NCBI RefSeq assembly: GCF_035084215.1
Contig: NC_090341.1
Coordinates: 51,522,001-51,586,000, forward strand
Length of the DNA stretch: 64,000 nucleotides
Direction of reading: 5' to 3'
From: Heptranchias perlo
Taxonomy: Eukaryota
Made by a program: the position numbers and the translations under genes. The notes below the pieces were generated by a model. That model was not told the DNA's origin. It saw only the letters and a program-made list of their open reading frames with translations, and made no database searches. Numbering within the stretch: the stretch's first letter is position 1; each line of letters begins with the position of its first letter. Below, piece after piece: positions 3,311-64,000 of the stretch.

Positions 3311-3952
3311 TCCCTATGTCCTATGTGTCTGAACCAGTTGATTCATCACCTGGTCCTTTGATAGAATGATTTCCTCTTGGATGCTGTGCTTCCCCTCGTG
3401 AATGCTGCTGTCTGAATGCCTTGGTCGTCTTCTCCTCGACTGGCTGACTGACGAGTGCTCTTTTCCTTATTACCGCTATGCTACAGTCACAACCCTCACA
3501 CTGTGCTCAAAAGGCATGAGATTAAATACCCTGGTGATGCATATTGCCGCCTGTAGTCTCCGCGTGGGTTTCCTGACAGGAGATCGATGGAACCCCCTAA
3601 GTAACGGCTAAAAATAGCCATATACGCCATTTTTCCAAAGTTCTGGTAGATGATTGGGGAGAACCCCGCAGAAATTCTGCTACAGGTTTACTTCTGTAGG
3701 TTCATTGTTGGACCCTCTGATCACTTGGGCTGTATCGACCAGCTCTGGCCCTTTCCCTTTGCCTCACAGGCCCAGACTACTGGGAGGAGAGATCTGAATA
3801 CCCAGCAGTACAGCTCCTTCCTGTCCCAGTACTGATGCTAGTGTCCCATGAAATGGAACCCCTCATTCCCACACCAGTCTTTCATTTTCTTTTTTTTAAT
3901 TCGTTCATGGGATGTGGGCGTCGCTGACGAGGCCAGCATTTATTGCCCATCC

Positions 3953-6877
3953 CTAATTGCCCTCGAGAAGGTGGTGGTGAGCCGCCTTCTTGAACCGCTG
4001 CAGTCCGTGTGGTGATGGTTCTCCCACAGTGCTGTTAGGAAGGGAGTTCCAGGATTTTGACCCAGCGACGATGAAGGAACGGCGATATATTTCCAAGTCG
4101 GGATGGTGTGTGACTTGGAGGGGAACGTGCAGGTGGTGTTGTTCCCATGCGCCTGCTGCTCTTGTCCTTCTAGGTGGTAGAGGTCGCGGGTTTGGGAGGT
4201 GCTGTCGAAGAAGCCTTGGCGAGTTGCTGCAGTGCATCCTGTGGATGGTGCACACTGCAGCCACAGTGCGCCGGTGGTGAAGGGAGTGAATGTTTAGGGT
4301 GGTGGATGGGGTGCCAATCAAGCGGGCTGCTTTATCTTGGATGGTGTCGAGCTTCTTGAGTGTTGTTGGAGCTGCACTCATCCAGGCAAGTGGAGAGTAT
4401 TCCATCACACTCCTGACTTGTGCCTTGTCGATGGTGGAAAGGCTTTGGGGAGTCAGGAGGTGAGTCACTCGCCGCAGAATACCCAGCCTCTGACCTGCTC
4501 TCGTAGCCACAGTATTTATATGGCTGGTCCAGTTCAGTTTCTGGTCAATGGTGACCCCCAGGATGTTGATGGTGGGGGATTCGGCGATGGTAATGCCGTT
4601 GAATGTCAAGGGGAGGTGGTTAGACTCTCTCTTGTTGGAGATGGTCATTGCCTGGCACTTATCTGGCGCGAATGTTACTTGCCACTTATGAGCCCAAGCC
4701 TGGATGTTGTCCAGGTCTTGCTGCATGCGGGCTTGGACTGCTTCATTATCTGAGGGGTTGCGAATGGAACTGAACACTGTGCAGTCATCAGCGAACATCC
4801 CCATTTCTGACCTTATGATGGAGGGAAGGTCATTGATGAAGCAGCTGAAGATGGTTGTGCCTAGGACACTGCCCTGAGGAACTCCTGCAGCAATGCCCTG
4901 GGGCTGAGATGATTGGCCTCCAACAACCACTACCATCTTCCTTTGTGCTAGGTATGACTCCAGCCACTGGAGAGTTTTCCCCCTGATTCCCATGGACTTC
5001 AATTTTACTAGGGCTCCTTGGTGCCACACTCGGTCAAATGCTGCCTTGATGTCAAGGGCAGTCACTCTCACCTCACCTCTGGAATTCAGCTCTTTTGTCC
5101 ATGTTTGGACCAAGGCTGTAATGAGGTCTGGAGCCGAGTGGTCCTGGCGGAACCCAAACTGAGCATCGGTGAGCAGGTTATTGGTGAGTAAGTGCCGCTT
5201 GATAGCACTGTCGACAACACCTTCCATCACTTTGCTGATGATTGAGAGTAGACTGATGGGGCGGTAATTGGCCGGATTGGATTTGTCCTGCTTTTTGTGG
5301 ACAGGACATACCTGGGCAATTTTCCACATTGTCGGGTAGATGCCAGTGTTGTAGCTGTACTGAAACAGCTTGGCTAGAGGCGCAGCTAGTTCTGGAGCAC
5401 AAGTCTTCAGCACTACAGCTGGGATGTTGTCGGGGCCCATAGCCTTTGCTGTATCCAGTGCACTCAGCCGTTTCTTGATATCACGTGGAGTGAATCGAAT
5501 TGGCCGAAGACTGGCTTCCGTGATGGTGGGGATATCGGGAGGAGGCTGAGATGGATCATCCACTCGGCACTTCTGGCTGAAGATGGTTGCAAACGCTTCA
5601 GCCTTGTCTTTTGCACTCACGTGCTGGACTCCGCCATCATTGAGAATGGGGATGTTTGCAGAGCCTCCTCCTCCCGTTAGTTGTTTAATTGTCCACCACC
5701 ATTCATGACTGGATGTGGCAGGACTGCAGAGCTTTGATCTGATCCGTTGGTTGTGGAATCGCTTAGCTCTGTCTATAGCATGTTGCTTCCGCTGTTTAGC
5801 ATGCATGTAGTCCTGAGTTGTAGCTTCACCAGGTTGGTACCTCATTTTTAGGTACGCCTGGTGCTGCTCCTGGCATGCTCTTCTACACTCCTCATTGAAC
5901 CAGGGTTGATCCCCTGGCTTGTTGGTAATGGTAGAGTGAGGAATATGCCGGGCCATGAGGTTACAGATTGTGGTGGAATACAATTCTGCTGCTGCTGATG
6001 GCCCACAGCGCCTCATGGATGCCCAGTTTTGTGCTGCTCGATCTGTTCTGAATCTATCCCATTTAGCACGGTGGTAGTGCCACACAACACGTTGGATGGT
6101 GTCCTCAGTGCGAAGACGGGACTTCATCTCCACAAGGACTGTGCAGTGGTCACTCCTACCAATACTGTCATGGACAGATGCATCTGCGACAGGTAGATTG
6201 GTGAGGACGAGGTCAAGTAAGTTTTTCCCTCGTGTTGGTTCGCTCACCACCTGCCGCAGGCCCAGTCTAGCAGCTATGTCCTTCAGGACTCGGCCAGCTC
6301 GGTCAGTAGTGGTGCTAACGAGCCACTCTTGGTGATGAACATTGAAGTCCCCCACCCAGAGTACATTTTGTGCCCTTGCTACCCTCAGTGCTTCCTCCAA
6401 GTGGTGCTCAACATGGAGGAGGACTGATTCATCAGCTGAGGGAGGGCGGTAGGTGGTAATCAGCAGGAGGTTTCCTTGCCCATGTTTGACCTGATGCCAT
6501 GAGATTTCATGGGGTCCAGAGTCAATGTTGAGGACTCCCAGGGCCACTCCCTCCTGACTGTATATCACTGTACCGCCACCTCTGGTGGGTCTGTCCTGCC
6601 GGTGGGACAGGACATACCCAGGGATGGTGATGGAAGAGTCTGGGACGTTGGCTGAAAGGTATGATTCTGTGAGTATGGCTATGTCAGGCTGTTGCTTGAC
6701 TAGTCTGTGGGACAGCTCTCCCAATTTTGGCACAAGTCCCCAGATGTTAGTAAGGAGGACCTTGCAGGGTCGACTGGACTTGGTGTTTTTTTGCCGTTGT
6801 CGTGTCCGGTGCCGAGTGGTCCGATGCCGGGTGGTCCGTCCGGTTTTATTCTTATTCTGACTTTTCGTAGCGAGATT
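3953..6877 (-). CDS. APE endonuclease-reverse transcriptase, open for 974 codons with no initiating AUG
   Basis: Frame opens after TAA at 6880-6878; Arg-rich leader, then LTNIWGL, LTESYL, YRPP, VGDFNVH, LDLV, SDH (APE), then NYRPISLL, QFGFR, LDIKAAFDRV, GVPQGSVLG, MFADD, LGVTID (RT). The ORF track start at 6733 is GTG; first ATG is at 6127. Confidence 0.9.
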   Translation of the reverse strand, partial: NLATKSQNKNKTGRTTRHRTTRHRTRQRQKNTKSSRPCKVLLTNIWGLVPKLGELSHRLVKQQPDIAILTESYLSANVPDSSITIPGYVLSHRQDRPTRGGGTVIYSQEGVALGVLNIDSGPHEISWHQVKHGQGNLLLITTYRPPSADESVLLHVEHHLEEALRVARAQNVLWVGDFNVHHQEWLVSTTTDRAGRVLKDIAARLGLRQVVSEPTRGKNLLDLVLTNLPVADASVHDSIGRSDHCTVLVEMKSRLRTEDTIQRVVWHYHRAKWDRFRTDRAAQNWASMRRCGPSAAAELYSTTICNLMARHIPHSTITNKPGDQPWFNEECRRACQEQHQAYLKMRYQPGEATTQDYMHAKQRKQHAIDRAKRFHNQRIRSKLCSPATSSHEWWWTIKQLTGGGGSANIPILNDGGVQHVSAKDKAEAFATIFSQKCRVDDPSQPPPDIPTITEASLRPIRFTPRDIKKRLSALDTAKAMGPDNIPAVVLKTCAPELAAPLAKLFQYSYNTGIYPTMWKIAQVCPVHKKQDKSNPANYRPISLLSIISKVMEGVVDSAIKRHLLTNNLLTDAQFGFRQDHSAPDLITALVQTWTKELNSRGEVRVTALDIKAAFDRVWHQGALVKLKSMGIRGKTLQWLESYLAQRKMVVVVGGQSSQPQGIAAGVPQGSVLGTTIFSCFINDLPSIIRSEMGMFADDCTVFSSIRNPSDNEAVQARMQQDLDNIQAWAHKWQVTFAPDKCQAMTISNKRESNHLPLTFNGITIAESPTINILGVTIDQKLNWTSHINTVATRAGQRLGILRRVTHLLTPQSLSTIDKAQVRSVMEYSPLAWMSAAPTTLKKLDTIQDKAARLIGTPSTTLNIHSLHHRRTVAAVCTIHRMHCSNSPRLLRQHLPNPRPLPPRRTRAAGAWEQHHLHVPLQVTHHPDLEIYRRSFIVAGSKSWNSLPNSTVGEPSPHGLQRFKKAAHHHLLEGN

Positions 6878-7060
6878 TTACAACTGAGTGGCTTGCTCGG
6901 CCATTTCAGAGGGCAATTAAGAATCAACCACATTGCTGTGGGTCTGGAGTCACGTATAGGCCAGACCGGGTAAGGATGGCAGGTTTCCTTCCCTGAAGGA
7001 CATTAGTGAACCAGATGGGTTTTTACGACAATCCGGTAGTTTCATGGCCACCATTACTGA
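6866..7060 (-). promoter_or_regulatory. Structured 5' UTR, candidate IGR-IRES-like element
   Basis: Stacked hairpins: AAGGA/UCCUU (6990-6972), GGUCUGG/CCAGACC (6967-6941), CCACA-GCAA-UGUGG (6941-6928), CUGA-aa-UGGC-[CGAGCAA]-GCCA-c-UCAG (6909-6884), then in-frame GCU at 6871-6869. Confidence 0.5.
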
Positions 7061-7134
7061 TACTAGTATTTTAATTCCAGATTTTTATTTAATTAATTGA
7101 ATTTAATTAATTAATTGAATTTTTTAATTCGCCA

Positions 7135-7227
7135 GCTGCCGTGGCAGGATTTGAACTCATGACTCTGGATTTTAGTCCAGGCCTCTGGATTACTAGTCCA
7201 GTAACATAACCACTATGCTACCGTACC
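7135..7227 (-). promoter_or_regulatory. tRNA(Thr-AGT)-like internal Pol III promoter forming the LINE 5' end
   Basis: A box TAGCATAGTGG (7220-7210), B box GTTCAAATCC (7156-7147), anticodon arm CTGGA-CTAGTAA-TCCAG followed by a degenerate duplicate TGGACTAAAATCCAG. Confidence 0.82.
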
Positions 7228-8685
7228 CGTTATTCCTGCTCCATTTATTCCTGTGCCAATTTGCATGTAGCTCTGGTAGTAATCTGGATATGACCACCCT
7301 CAAGGGCTTGCTTTTTAATTTAGCTCCTGATAATTCCCTCGGGCAGGACCACCTCCCTGTTCCTTCCTTTGTCATTGGTTCTGACATGGACTCGGACAAC
7401 TGATTCTTCACCCTCCCTTTCCAAGTTACTTTCCAGCTGCTCCTGATACCAGGTAGGAAACACACCCATCTGTATTCTCAATCACTACTGCAGAGTATAG
7501 AATCGCCTATAACTACCTTTCTATTCTGCTTCTCCACCCACCCCCTTGAACTGCCTCCTGCTCCATGGTGCGCATTGTGGCTATCTTCCCCGTAGTCTTT
7601 CGCCTTATCCTCACAGGTGGCAAGTTCATCGTACCTGTTGGACAGAACCAGATTCTGCAGTACCTTCTACCTGCTTCCAGTAGGTTCCCCTTACCCTGTT
7701 GACTCAGTCACACACTCCTCTTCCTGAGCCTTGACTTCTCCACATGGTGTGACTGGGTTCTGGAGTAAATTATCCAGACATTGCTCCCCCTCTCTGATGA
7801 GCTAGAGTGCGGGTTAGACACCAACACAACAACTCTGAGCCAGAGTGATTCAAGATAGAGACATTTCCTGCAGATGTGGTCATCCAGGAGAGTCTCACTG
7901 TCCACAAATTCCCACATACTGCAGTCCCAAAACACTGACTGTGCCGCTATTATCTACTCTGCAACTGCTATATAATCAATAAATAAATGTTTAATGCTTA
8001 CTGAATCGCCTTTAATGGTGAATTAGTTTTAGCTACCGCTCAGTTTATTAAATTTATCCTATTGGGTCTATTTACTAAAAGTAAACAGTTTGTTTTTACC
8101 GTTGCCTCTTAATTAATATTTTCAAGTTAAGTTGCCCCTTTAATTTTAACTATATAGTCAATTGAGGTTGGATAATAAATTAAACACTTAGCTTAAATTC
8201 TCGGGCTCTGCCACTCCTCCCTCTGCGTTGACCCCTTCGTTTGTTTGACCTCACCTGAAATCCTGGAAGAAACAGCTGAAAATGGCCATTTATGCCATTT
8301 CTCCAAGGTTTCTGCTAAAGTTATGGCAGGAGATTGGGCCGAACTCCCCACAAGTTTACTTCTGTTGGTTAATTGTTGGACCCTCTGGTCGCTTGGGCTG
8401 TTTCAGACAGCCCTTTGTCCCACTGGCCCAGACTACTGGGAGGACAGCAGGCCTCTGCCTTCTGTTGACTGTCCAAGTGCTGACTGACCTAGGGACGGAG
8501 AGATGGCCCTTTTATACCTTTTAAATTTCACTGACCAACTTTTTCTAGCTTCAAAGTTCAGTGGCCAGTTGAAAGGTTAACTGGGACATGCTAGTCCCTT
8601 CCAAAGGGCTAATCAGTTTTGATGGACGTGTGAGAGAAATTGCTGTCAATTTTCACATGTTCCGATTAGGCTGATGTTTCCTGAC

Positions 8686-8800
8686 CAATGTTCCCTCTAA
8701 TTTTTTTCAGCCATGTGCGGAATGAATTTGGGTTTGTGCACCGATATAAAGGCTGTGTGCCCCAGTGTAAAAAAATAATCGCAACTTTGAATGGAACATT
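8686..8800. mobile_element. hAT-type terminal region
   Basis: CAATGTTCCCTCTAA terminus with a degenerate internal inverted copy (TTGAATGGAACATT) near 8787-8800; possibly the 3' end of the hAT at 16585-17975. Confidence 0.45.
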
Positions 8801-24365: not shown

Positions 24366-24810
24366 CTGCAGATAGTATCCAAATAACTCTTCCCCCACTC
24401 TGATGCATCGCAGTGTCCGCAGCTCAGACTCCAGCCCAACAACTATGAGCCGAAGATCCTCGAGCTGCAGACACTTACTGCAGGTGTGGTTGCTCGGGAT
24501 CTCGCAAACTCCCCCATGCTGCAGTTACGACACACCACCTGCCCTGCCATCTTTATCTAACCTTGTTTTATATAATTAGTTTTTAAAAAGTTTTTATTCA
24601 ATGGATTATTTATAGTTTTATTAATCTAGTTAATAATCTAGTTTGTTATTAATTTAATAAAGTAGTAGCAGTTTCATTCTCCCAGCTCTTAATTTAACCC
24701 ACTGCCCTAACTTAGAGGGAAAGAATGCAGTAATACTTACCAGCCAATCACCTACCTGCCGTCCCATGACGTCACTCCTTGATTTTTTTTCCAGTCCCAC
24801 GGAATGTATC

Positions 24811-25545
24811 GCCCCCGCCCCGGTCCCCGACCGGACCCTCCCCCGTCTCCCCCGCCCCGGTCCCCGACCGGACCCTCCCCCGTCTCCCCCGCCCGGCCCC
24901 TCCCCCGTCTCCCCCGCCCCGGTCCCCGACCGGACCCTCCCCCGTCTCCCCCGCCCCGGTCCCCGACCGGACCCTCCCCCGTCTCCTCCGCCCCGGTCCC
25001 CGACCGGACCCTCCCCCGTCTCCCCCGCCCCGGTCCCCGACCGGAGTCTCCCCCGCCCCGGTCCCCGACCGGACCCTCCCCCGTCTCCCCCGCCCCGGTC
25101 CCCGACCGGACCCTCCCCCGTCTCCCCCGTCCCGGTCCCCGACCGGGCCTTCCCCCGTCTCCCCCGCCCCGGTCCCCGACCGGACACTCCCCCGTCTCCC
25201 CCGCCCCGGTCCCCGACCGGGCCCTCCCCCGTCTCCCCCGCCCCGGTCCCTGACCGGACCCTCCCCCGTCTCCCCCGCCCCGGTCCCTGACCGGACCCTC
25301 CCCCGTCTCCCCCGCCCCGGTCCCCGACCGGCCCCAACCCCGTCTCCCCCGCCCCAGTCCCCGACCGGACCCTCCCCCGCCCCGGTCCCTGACCGGCCCC
25401 AACCCCGTCTCCCCCGCCCCGGTCCCCGACCAGCCCCAACCCCGCCCCTCCACCGCCCCGGTCCCCGACCGGGCCCGCCCCCGCCGCGGTCCCCGACCGG
25501 ACCCTCCCCCACCCCGGTCCCCGACCGGGCCCGCCCCCGCCTCCG
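24811..25545 (-). repeat. 37-bp G-rich tandem array (~20 units, some truncated) in CR1 5' UTR
   Basis: Sense unit GAGACGGGGGAGGGTCCGGTCGGGGACCGGGGCGGGG; the 37-aa periodicity of the overlapping ORFs confirms the period. Confidence 0.95.
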
Positions 25546-25647
25546 CCACTCCTCGGGACTTTAGGCCTTCGATCCTCCCTTTTATTTACCTGCCTTCACT
25601 GCTCTAATCCCCGTTGAGGTCCGCTCCTGCCTCCACTGCTCCTCCTG

Positions 25648-62950: not shown

Positions 62951-63268
62951 TCCTCCTCCTCCCGCTCACTCACCGCCCTCTGCAGCCCCCAATTCACTGC
63001 CTTTTGTTGGGCCAGATGTCAGAGGGTACTCAGCCCTAGGTCACTCTGCCAATGATTCGTCTGGGCACTCCCAATTGGGTATAACCAGGCTTTATTGTAA
63101 CATTAGCAGAATCAATGATACACACGGTATTCAAGCAACAATTAACAGAATCAAGGTCGGTATTACCCAGTCCGGGTCTCTGGACAGCAGCGCAGCGTGG
63201 TAGGTCTTGTTCAAATCTGCTGTGTTTTGTTCTTTTCGCGCTCTTTCATTTATATCCTTACATTTATC

Positions 63269-64000
63269 AAGTAACAAGGTTAAGGCCCCCTAAGGTCATC
63301 TCACAGTTAACAAGGTTAAGGCCCCCTAAGGTCATCTCACAGTTAACAAGGTTAAGGCCCCCTAAGGTCAACTCACAGTTAACAAGGTTAAGGACCCCTA
63401 AGATCATCTCACAGTTAACAAGGTTAAGGCCCCCTAAGGTCAACTCACAGTTAACAAGGTTAAGGACCCCTAAGATCATCTCACAGTTAACAAGGTTAAG
63501 GCCCCCTAAGGTCAACTCACAGTTAACAAGGTTAAGGACCCCTAAGATCATCTCACAGTTAACAAGGTTAAGGCCCCCTAAGGTCATCTCACAGTTAACA
63601 AAGTTAAGGCCCCCTCAGGTCATCTCACAGTTAACAAGGTTAAGGCCCCCTCAGGTCAACTCACAGTTAACAAGGTTAAGGCCCCCTAAGGTCAACTCAC
63701 AGTTAACAAGGTTAAGGACCCCTAAGATCATCTCACAGTTAACAAGGTTAAGGCCCCCTAAGGTCAACTCACAGTTAACAAGGTTAAGGACCCCTAAGAT
63801 CATCTCACAGTTAACAAGGTTAAGGCCCCCTAAGGTCATCTCACAGTTAACAAAGTTAAGGCCCCCTCAGGTCATCTCACAGTTAACAAGGTTAAGGCCC
63901 CCTCAGGTCAACTCACAGTTAACAAGGTTAAGGCCCCCTAAGATAATCTCACAGTTAACGAGGTTAAGGCCCCCTCAGGTCATCTCACAGTTAACAAGGT
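63269..64000. repeat. 36-bp tandem array (~20 copies, runs off the window), probably inside an LTR beginning near 63096
   Basis: Unit TTAACAAGGTTAAGGCCCCCTAAGGTCATCTCACAG with alternating variants. Confidence 0.95.

Follow-up and report, generated by a model that had tools for sequence, protein, structure and literature searches.

The AUG of L1 ORF2 is dispensable, and R2 lacks one. LINE enzymes can be made by non-canonical initiation; termination-reinitiation has been proposed for L1 and SART1, and in caliciviruses this mechanism accepts near- as well as non-cognate codons (PMC5972666). A review of single-ORF APE elements (PMC3894237) raises IGR-type IRESs in non-LTR elements only as speculation. 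The single-ORF elements of the CR1/L2 group carry APE and reverse transcriptase (RT) in one frame, have no ORF1 and share their 3' tail with SINEs. The tRNA SINEs of cartilaginous fishes (SacSINE1, CmiSINEs, HE1), and bipartite LINE-derived SINEs, consist of a tRNA head, a conserved body and a LINE 3' tail. SINEs are stated to be unable to code for protein (PMC5786205), and according to PMC2666806 Pol III RNAs are uncapped, can retrotranspose with ORF2p alone and are in general regarded as non-coding. Type 6 (dicistrovirus IGR) IRESs have structured leaders of ~190 nt and start at non-AUG codons, most commonly GCU (PMC12221177).

The 64,000-nt stretch of the Heptranchias perlo genome analysed here (the window; contig NC_090341.1) carries on its minus strand an element with the following features, in window coordinates:

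7228-3890, minus: full-length non-LTR retrotransposon (LINE) with one APE-RT frame, a tRNA-like head and a short A tail
7136-7228, minus: tRNA-like head (A box 7220-7210, B box 7158-7148)
7065-7130, minus: AT-rich stretch of variable length, without TTTT
6884-7060, minus: conserved body of SINE type that may form several hairpins, common to the short SINE forms; no named domain matched
6700-6933, minus: uORF of 77 aa in the +1 frame, from ATG 6933 to TAG 6702
6884-6909, minus: last leader hairpin, 8-9 bp, with a 7-nt loop C-U-AGC-A-A at 6899-6893
6878-6883, minus: TTG 6883 and, right after it in frame, TAA 6880; older lineages have TAC or TAT at 6880, so that their TTG is open
6866-6871, minus: candidate start GCT 6871 with ACG 6868, the latter ACA or AAA in older lineages
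6761-6871, minus: basic N-terminal tail starting ATKSQNKNKTGRTTRHR, read in the APE frame and containing the A7 run 6792-6786
6146-6748, minus: APE endonuclease domain (Pfam PF03372, Exo_endo_phos), residues 44-244, all upstream of ATG 6127
6125-6127, minus: first in-frame ATG after TAA 6880, residue 251, past the SDH motif; older copies have ACG here and the ancient lineage has ACC
4547-5293, minus: reverse transcriptase domain (Pfam PF00078, RVT_1), residues 529-777
3890-3955, minus: stop codon and 3' tail, the tail common to the SINE forms; A tail 3897-3890

Judged by its sequence, this is an autonomous, single-ORF LINE of ~3.3 kb (3,339 nt) whose lineage is under purifying selection: one APE-RT frame of 974 codons runs from stop to stop (6877-3953, minus strand, 974 aa), and there is no ORF1. 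Thousands of copies occur in the genome and show the LINE hallmarks of dispersal, a common 3' end, an A tail and 5' truncations. The 5' end falls at 7224-7228 in 27 of 39 young copies, target-site duplications of at least 6 nt flank only one of the 39, and all 974 codons are kept in five of them as well as in the window copy. Likeness to the CR1/L2 group is one of architecture, the nearest full-length proteins being 32-38% identical and without names or clade labels; moreover, the closest proteins (P0001-P0009) are annotated with Met starts, that of P0001 reading MATKK and then a basic tail, whereas this element has a tRNA-like head and no in-frame AUG. A PDB sequence search returned no APE match, Rfam found no ribozyme in the element, no 2A-like motif was seen in it, and neither relatives nor the hairpin motif were found in viral contigs. 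The literature searched, with Repbase and subscription journals outside its scope, yielded no description of a tRNA-headed, AUG-less LINE.

Short forms in the genome repeat the layout of the cartilaginous fish SINEs, with a tRNA head, the conserved body and the LINE 3' tail, and they arise repeatedly from this same element by internal deletion. Compared by eye, the body has only a GGTTGACTC word in common with the UCON3 domain and is unlike the Deu and Meta domains in printed alignments; a Deu-domain/SacSINE1 label was dropped after the Deu domain could not be recognised by eye against the alignment in the supplement of PMC7245038.

A sequence-only reading of this DNA had held that the frame is open from 6877 and first meets an ATG at 6127, past the SDH motif, and this is borne out, ATG 6127 being residue 251. 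As it also stated, the APE motif LTNIWGL (residues 42-48) lies upstream of GTG 6733, which is the very next codon, and neither GTG 6733 nor ATG 6127 yields a full enzyme. Three age classes or lineages of the family lack any in-frame AUG, and in the ancient lineage the ATGs at 6127, 6904 and 6933 correspond to ACC, GTG and probably ACG: among 38 ancient rows, position 6904 is G in 29 and A in 7, and position 6932 is C in 18 and T in 18 before G, a decayed CpG from which the ancient codon 6933 was probably ACG. Between the young and older majorities, the region 6760-6128 shows 7 silent and 0 replacement changes (binomial p 7e-5), while the sequence downstream of it shows 14 silent and 10 replacement changes in the same comparison. 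Set against the ancient lineage, the endonuclease has 19 silent and 9 replacement changes, with no stop in frame 0 and 8 and 14 stops in the other frames. Common linker lengths are 156, 153, 150 and 135 nt, and the shared indels, of 3, 6 and 15 nt, are all multiples of three. Purifying selection on the endonuclease combined with triplet indels in the linker thus indicates that translation of the endonuclease, which lies upstream of ATG 6127, takes place without any in-frame AUG. In at least six distant relatives (L116, L187, L196, L199, L202, L204) there is likewise no Met before the APE motif, so a tRNA head is not a requirement for an AUG-less ORF.

One in-frame ATG within the last hairpin, ATG 6904, had been missed by the sequence-only reading. 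It is closed by TAA 6880 in all 29 other young copies, and in 17 of these by TAG 6898 as well; exact genome matches number 4,549 for the TAA-closed form against 228 with ATG 6904 open. Readthrough of TAG 6898 (UAG-CAA context) was rejected because a second readthrough, at TAA 6880, would be needed in the youngest lineage, and it is also disfavoured by the GTG at 6904 in the ancient lineage. Splicing to an upstream ATG was rejected too, no leader-to-ORF junction recurring among 40 deletion junctions. In young copies the in-frame stops leave only 6877-6860 for the start, directly after the conserved hairpin.

The tRNA-like head at the 5' end, which the sequence-only reading had also missed, matches the Rfam tRNA model at 22.3 bits (E 0.053), and that of an older copy does so at 23.8 bits, both below the gathering score of 29. 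ARAGORN reports no tRNA gene, and 13 distant relatives gave no Rfam match at E 0.5, a weak test given the low score of the head itself. The A and B box columns are each at least 94% conserved, and the boxes lie as far from the sharply defined 5' end as in a tRNA gene, the arrangement of Pol III type 2 promoters; a duplication of ~20 nt within the head (7182-7163) is found in the youngest subfamily only, older copies being without it. Among 30 loci picked by head sequence alone, 24 run on from the head into APE. The sense strand contains no TTTT run in 3,339 nt, against 22 A4, 12 C4 and 6 G4 runs, and TTTT is also absent from 32 of 39 young copies and across 2,960 columns of the ancient lineage, which, at 188 differences, is only partly independent evidence. 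TTT is depleted (p 0.002), while the absence of TTTT is borderline (p 0.01 by letter shuffle, 0.08 by dinucleotide shuffle and 0.07 by synonymous-codon shuffle), and only 1 of 87 distant relatives, which are mostly T-richer, lacks it. The well-defined 5' ends at the tRNA head, together with the lack of TTTT over 3.3 kb, suggest that the element is transcribed by Pol III, likely from that head. A role of the 3' T(n)A(n) tails in Pol III termination was also considered; T4 lies within 25 nt of the tail at 25 of 113 ends and in 51 of 423 control windows, and the pattern resembles A-tract decay.

The account that we favour, at a probability of roughly 0.45, is that Pol III would transcribe the element from its tRNA-like head into a full-length RNA without a cap, that ribosomes would enter through the folded leader in an IRES-like manner, and that initiation would occur directly at a non-AUG codon past the last hairpin. 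GCU 6871 would most likely be that codon: it is in frame and conserved across lineages, which makes it a candidate for start use, and GCTAC stays 12 nt from the hairpin while five of the seven preceding letters differ between lineages. The same 12-nt distance recurs in contigs of all four runs from four other organisms, and the MATKK start of the homolog P0001 also speaks for this position. Against it, GCT is kept in frame in only 5 of 10 measurable ancient copies, the rest being off by 1-2 nt through what appear by eye to be private indels.

The structured leader of ~190 nt and non-AUG start recall the type 6 IRESs, and the AGC in the 7-nt hairpin loop could pair with GCU; APLV1 has CUC before its GCU, as does the window copy (PMC10275262). 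In type 6 IRESs, however, the pairing partner of the loop is the triplet just upstream of GCU, whereas here that triplet varies (CTC or ACC) with no matching change in the loop. The window copy has G at loop position 6898, where 17 of 40 young copies have a letter other than T; a loop GAG:CUC pairing was rejected because it fails outside such G-variant copies, and in the ancient lineage the loop does not pair with CUC. UAGC of the loop is complementary to GCUA, but neither differs between the majorities of the lineages, and hence they offer no covariation. Rfam gave no dicistrovirus IRES match at E up to 5 or 10, PKII/PKIII and L1.1 motifs were not identified in the leader, and the predicted fold of the 221-nt leader is no more stable than those of shuffled sequences (z -0.37). 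Double compensatory changes are absent from every helix, three of the proposed pairs are lost in one lineage or another, and a helix 7052-7047/6980-6975, broken in the ancient lineage, was rejected. A bolder version, which we consider doubtful, would make the element a protein-coding SINE: in its uncapped 3.3-kb Pol III RNA the SINE body would be a factor-free, tRNA-mimicking IRES of dicistrovirus type, with the loop C-U-AGC-A-A pairing with GCU 6871 to set the frame, and SINE bodies would be conserved as the ribosome entry site of a parent LINE that spawned SINEs again and again.

Possible, though less probable than direct entry at GCU, is a start with Met-tRNAi on a capped Pol II or read-through RNA, at TTG 6883 in older copies and ACG 6868 in young ones. 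Ribosomes would get there by scanning or, once past the mini-uORFs of the leader (ATG 6955-TGA; ATG 6904-TAG/TAA), by reinitiation, for which L1, SART1 and the caliciviruses offer precedent (PMC5972666); unlike L1 and SART1, though, this element has no upstream ORF1 at which termination could occur. TTG 6883 is invariant and open in the ancient and TAC lineages, where TAT/TAC after it is a silent difference and the spacer change preserves the frame, and ACG 6868, with a purine at -3, is fixed in the youngest and largest class (50 of 102 copies, median divergence 0.9%); with TTG in older lineages and ACG in the youngest burst, near-cognate starts would explain most lineages. The exceptions are the copies combining TAA and AAA (16 of 102, median divergence 3.3%), which have neither an open TTG 6883 nor ACG 6868 and which count as exceptions if they are autonomous. 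Scanning should moreover favour ACG-to-ATG variants (3 of 102) and the 228 open ATG 6904 copies, yet neither founded a young lineage; the context of TTG 6883 is poor, and a near-cognate start leaves the tRNA head and the T-run deficit unexplained. Those same open copies, present as 9 of 102 in the sample, could instead be rare helpers that, with copies having ATG 6933 in frame, mobilise most others as passengers in trans. The short forms do show that trans-mobilisation or deletion in copying is common, but the 30 open copies inspected out of the 228 all prove old (median 92.5%) and lose the frame within 260 codons, none being at least 97% identical to the window, and purifying selection acted on the TAA-closed young lineage itself, which leaves the helper account very improbable.

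The sequence-only reading had offered two explanations of its own. It rightly placed ATG 6933 out of frame (in +1) within a GCAA hairpin (6941-6928, CCACA-GCAA-TGTGG) and noted an A7 run at 6792-6786, which is present, but its suggestion that this copy lost a base there is refuted and draws on nothing beyond the single window. Of the 29 other young copies, 28 have a spacing of 200 nt from 6933 to 6733 and one, with a private deletion at 6741, has 199; subfamilies differ at the run by 3 or 6 nt; with ATG 6933 out of frame in all 29, no base was lost here. An in-frame ATG 6933 does not hold for the family but does for a scattered minority (L073, L078, L235, L283, L290) with an extra T at the A run of 6868, which form no clade in a tree that left out L283 and L290. 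The other suggestion, that a -1 frameshift joins the 6933 uORF to APE-RT, is unlikely, as is polymerase slippage in an A run to the same effect. It can draw on the +1 frame, which young and older copies alike keep open between 6933 and 6702 and in which the substitutions at 6916, 6904 and 6898 are synonymous, and on GCT-AAA-AAA subfamilies that have A_AAA_AAA in that frame, some copies having gained a base there. That heptamer is found only in those subfamilies and is absent from the ACG-AAA, ACA-GAA and ancient ACA-AAG lineages; no conserved X_XXY_YYZ heptamer occurs in the overlap, so the frameshift goes unsupported. Codon 6933 was, as noted, probably ACG in the ancient lineage; over 6877-6703 frame 0 has 4 silent and 2 replacement changes against 1 and 5 in the +1 frame, and an open +1 frame would be expected in a linker poor in Leu, Ile and Val.

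What the locus offers is a tRNA-like SINE head joined to an AUG-less APE-RT in a young, intact, high-copy element. Gene callers will truncate such ORFs and miscall their copies as dead. With this element, a single construct can test if a Pol III transcript is able to serve as an mRNA, and in that construct both the production of LINE enzymes without an AUG and the conservation of SINE bodies become testable.

The element occupies 7228-3890 on the minus strand, lacks an ORF1 and ends 3' in a short A tail. It is an APE-type LINE whose single open frame spans 974 codons, beginning at 6877 and closing with the stop at 3953. Within this frame Pfam places an endonuclease at residues 44-244 and a reverse transcriptase at residues 529-777. 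The sequence-only reading had placed the whole endonuclease upstream of the first AUG, and this observation is real and family-wide. As it had claimed, the open frame has no ATG before 6127 (residue 251, beyond the endonuclease), GTG 6733 is the codon directly after LTNIWGL, an A7 run is present at 6792-6786, and ATG 6933 lies in the +1 frame, where it opens a 77-codon uORF. It had overlooked the in-frame ATG at 6904, from which reading ends at TAA 6880. None of 29 other young copies (those close to the window element) has ATG 6933 in frame, against the suggestion that this copy had lost a base of the A7 run, and TAA 6880 is invariant in them. The proposed comparison of both frames, made over 6877-6703 between young and older majorities, gave 4 silent and 2 replacement changes in frame 0 and 1 and 5 in the +1 frame, although the linker alone (3/2) is not significant.

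These 29 copies were picked by similarity, and we therefore sampled older classes, named by their triplets at 6880 and 6868, by pattern. In the 3.25-Gb genome, the junction 6600-6960 drew 2,284 candidates at first look, and a hairpin pattern matched exactly at 8,743 places. Class divergence is 4.2% for TAC+ACA, 3.9% for TAC+AAA, 3.3% for TAA+AAA and 0.9% for TAA+ACG, and copies share linkers (6904 to the APE Asn) of 156, 153, 150 and 135 nt. An ancient class, with some 80% identity to the window (38/47 rows kept; 9 dropped at <62% identity), has GTG and then TAG at 6904, a C/T mix at 6932 as from a decayed CpG, and ACC at codon 6127. No AUG route into APE exists in any lineage majority, whether young, older or ancient.

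In young copies the most variable base is the T of CTA (125/1,656, or 83/1,538 without three sites; overall rate 1.1%), which is usually replaced by G or C, at a rate above that of CpG, compared with 25/1,032 in the opposite-strand TAG context. Such sites occur element-wide (e.g. 7195, 7065, 6958, 6898, 6815 and 6702), and could reflect a modified U misread in reverse transcription or a DNA-level process.

Substitution patterns argue that the AUG-less endonuclease part is translated: young and older majorities differ over 6760-6128 by 7 silent and 0 replacement changes (p 7e-5), against 14/10 downstream, and in APE the comparison with the ancient class gives 19 silent codons against 9 with replacements, and no stop. 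Rare helper copies with an in-frame AUG are unlikely to supply the enzyme; ATG 6904 is open in 228 genome matches, but 4,549 are TAA-closed, and the 30 examined of the 228 are all old and broken. An additional T at another A run, that at 6868, placing ATG 6933 in frame, is found in scattered copies that form no clade in the tree, and no splice-like junction recurs among 40.

In the TAA lineages the start of translation is confined to about 6877-6860, a stretch between 6878 and the frame-keeping indels, close to the last of these leader features:

Features of the element's 5' part
7220-7210, minus strand: A box, every column at least 94% conserved
7158-7148, minus strand: B box, every column at least 94% conserved
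6909-6884, minus strand: last leader hairpin, 9 pairs in the ancient class and 8 in the young; loop C-U-AGC-A-A

GCTAC stands 12 bases past this hairpin in all three classes, with 5/7 preceding bases differing, and at the same distance in 4/4 runs from four other organisms. The nearest full-length homolog, P0001, starts MATKK with a basic tail; its counterpart here is ATKS, so an old Met seems to have been lost at this point. The loop UAGC is complementary to GCUA, recalling how dicistrovirus IGR IRESs mimic an anticodon-codon pair; GCU is their commonest first codon (PMC12221177 and PMC10275262). The start may work like that of a type 6 IRES, though probably not as a member of that class: Rfam gives no IGR IRES match, and the loop and GCUA, both invariant between lineage majorities, show no covariation. 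Also against this reading, three pairs proposed elsewhere break between lineages, leader folding is no better than in shuffles, loop position 6898 varies in 17/40 young copies, and GCT is in frame in only 5/10 measurable ancient copies. Near-cognate initiation would explain all classes but one, since older classes have an open TTG 6883 and the youngest is distinguished by ACG 6868; it leaves TAA+AAA, a class only presumed autonomous (16/102 copies), unexplained.

The tRNA-like 5' end scores 22.3 bits in the window and 23.8 bits in an older copy (Rfam; both below the gathering score of 29). Because 24/30 loci selected on the head alone continue into the endonuclease, the head is part of the LINE. 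Among 39 young copies fetched whole, the 5' end falls at 7224-7228 in 27, TTTT is missing from 32, and the 974-codon frame is complete in 5; target-site duplications are nearly absent (6 nt in one copy) and A tails measure only 7-13 nt. Contigs in four runs from the four other organisms have head-side ends at 7228 or 7222, and in single contigs from two of these the body leads to APE via a different linker. In the youngest subfamily only, some 20 nt from the anticodon arm are duplicated between the boxes (7182-7163). Identity of the body with the Deu domain was rejected by eye, as the alignment in the PMC7245038 supplement does not resemble it. In SINE-like short forms, this head and body are joined to the 3' tail by many different junctions, from 6885-6800 to 4056-3976 (loci L077, L079, L093, L096, L099, L231, L243 and L302-L331), with left ends clustered just after the last hairpin, a clustering biased by hairpin-pattern sampling; these forms look as if repeatedly generated from LINE RNA. 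The window also holds three 5'-truncated copies (38161-36409, 56848-55366 and 54208-53828; 93-95% identical).

An AUG-less APE alone is not rare, as at least six distant relatives also have no Met before APE; for the tRNA-headed AUG-less APE-RT architecture, searches of openly accessible papers listed no prior description. The nearest named protein, the shark gene model P0011 (labelled Heptranchias perlo; 80% over 27% of the query), is an aldo-keto reductase model that has absorbed about 260 residues of this LINE, probably as a mis-predicted exon. Animal-type LINE proteins encoded in 42 stretches of bacterial and archaeal MAG assemblies (L180-L221) are likely host contamination. Elsewhere in the window, Myb/SANT-like ORF fragments at 16333-15767 (PF13873) and, similarly, 30053-29496 are probably Harbinger-type transposon remnants, and GC-rich and 36-bp-like tandem repeats (24654-25595 and 63085-63999) produce long spurious ORFs.

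TTTT is absent from the 3,339 nt of the sense strand, and likewise from 2,960 called columns of the ancient class. TTT is depleted (6 vs 13.1 expected, p 0.002), but zero TTTT is by itself borderline (p 0.01-0.08). T4 counts are near expectation in CR1-like ORFs of the window, where a two-ORF CR1-like LINE at 14428-11175 (ORF1 SGNH esterase, PF13472; ORF2 APE-RT) served as a control for T runs. Of 122 loci fetched, 87 are distant relatives that carry a long ORF; one of these lacks TTTT, though most are T-richer. The metagenome contig L113, which excludes the 5' end, holds a distant relative of 912 codons with no TTTT vs 5.5 expected. The element's 5' end would work like a SINE's, and Pol III RNA is described in PMC2666806 as uncapped and as able to retrotranspose without ORF1. 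We infer that a Pol III origin would give the element an uncapped RNA for which ORF1 is not needed, and that such an origin would link the head to the absence of both ORF1 and an AUG.
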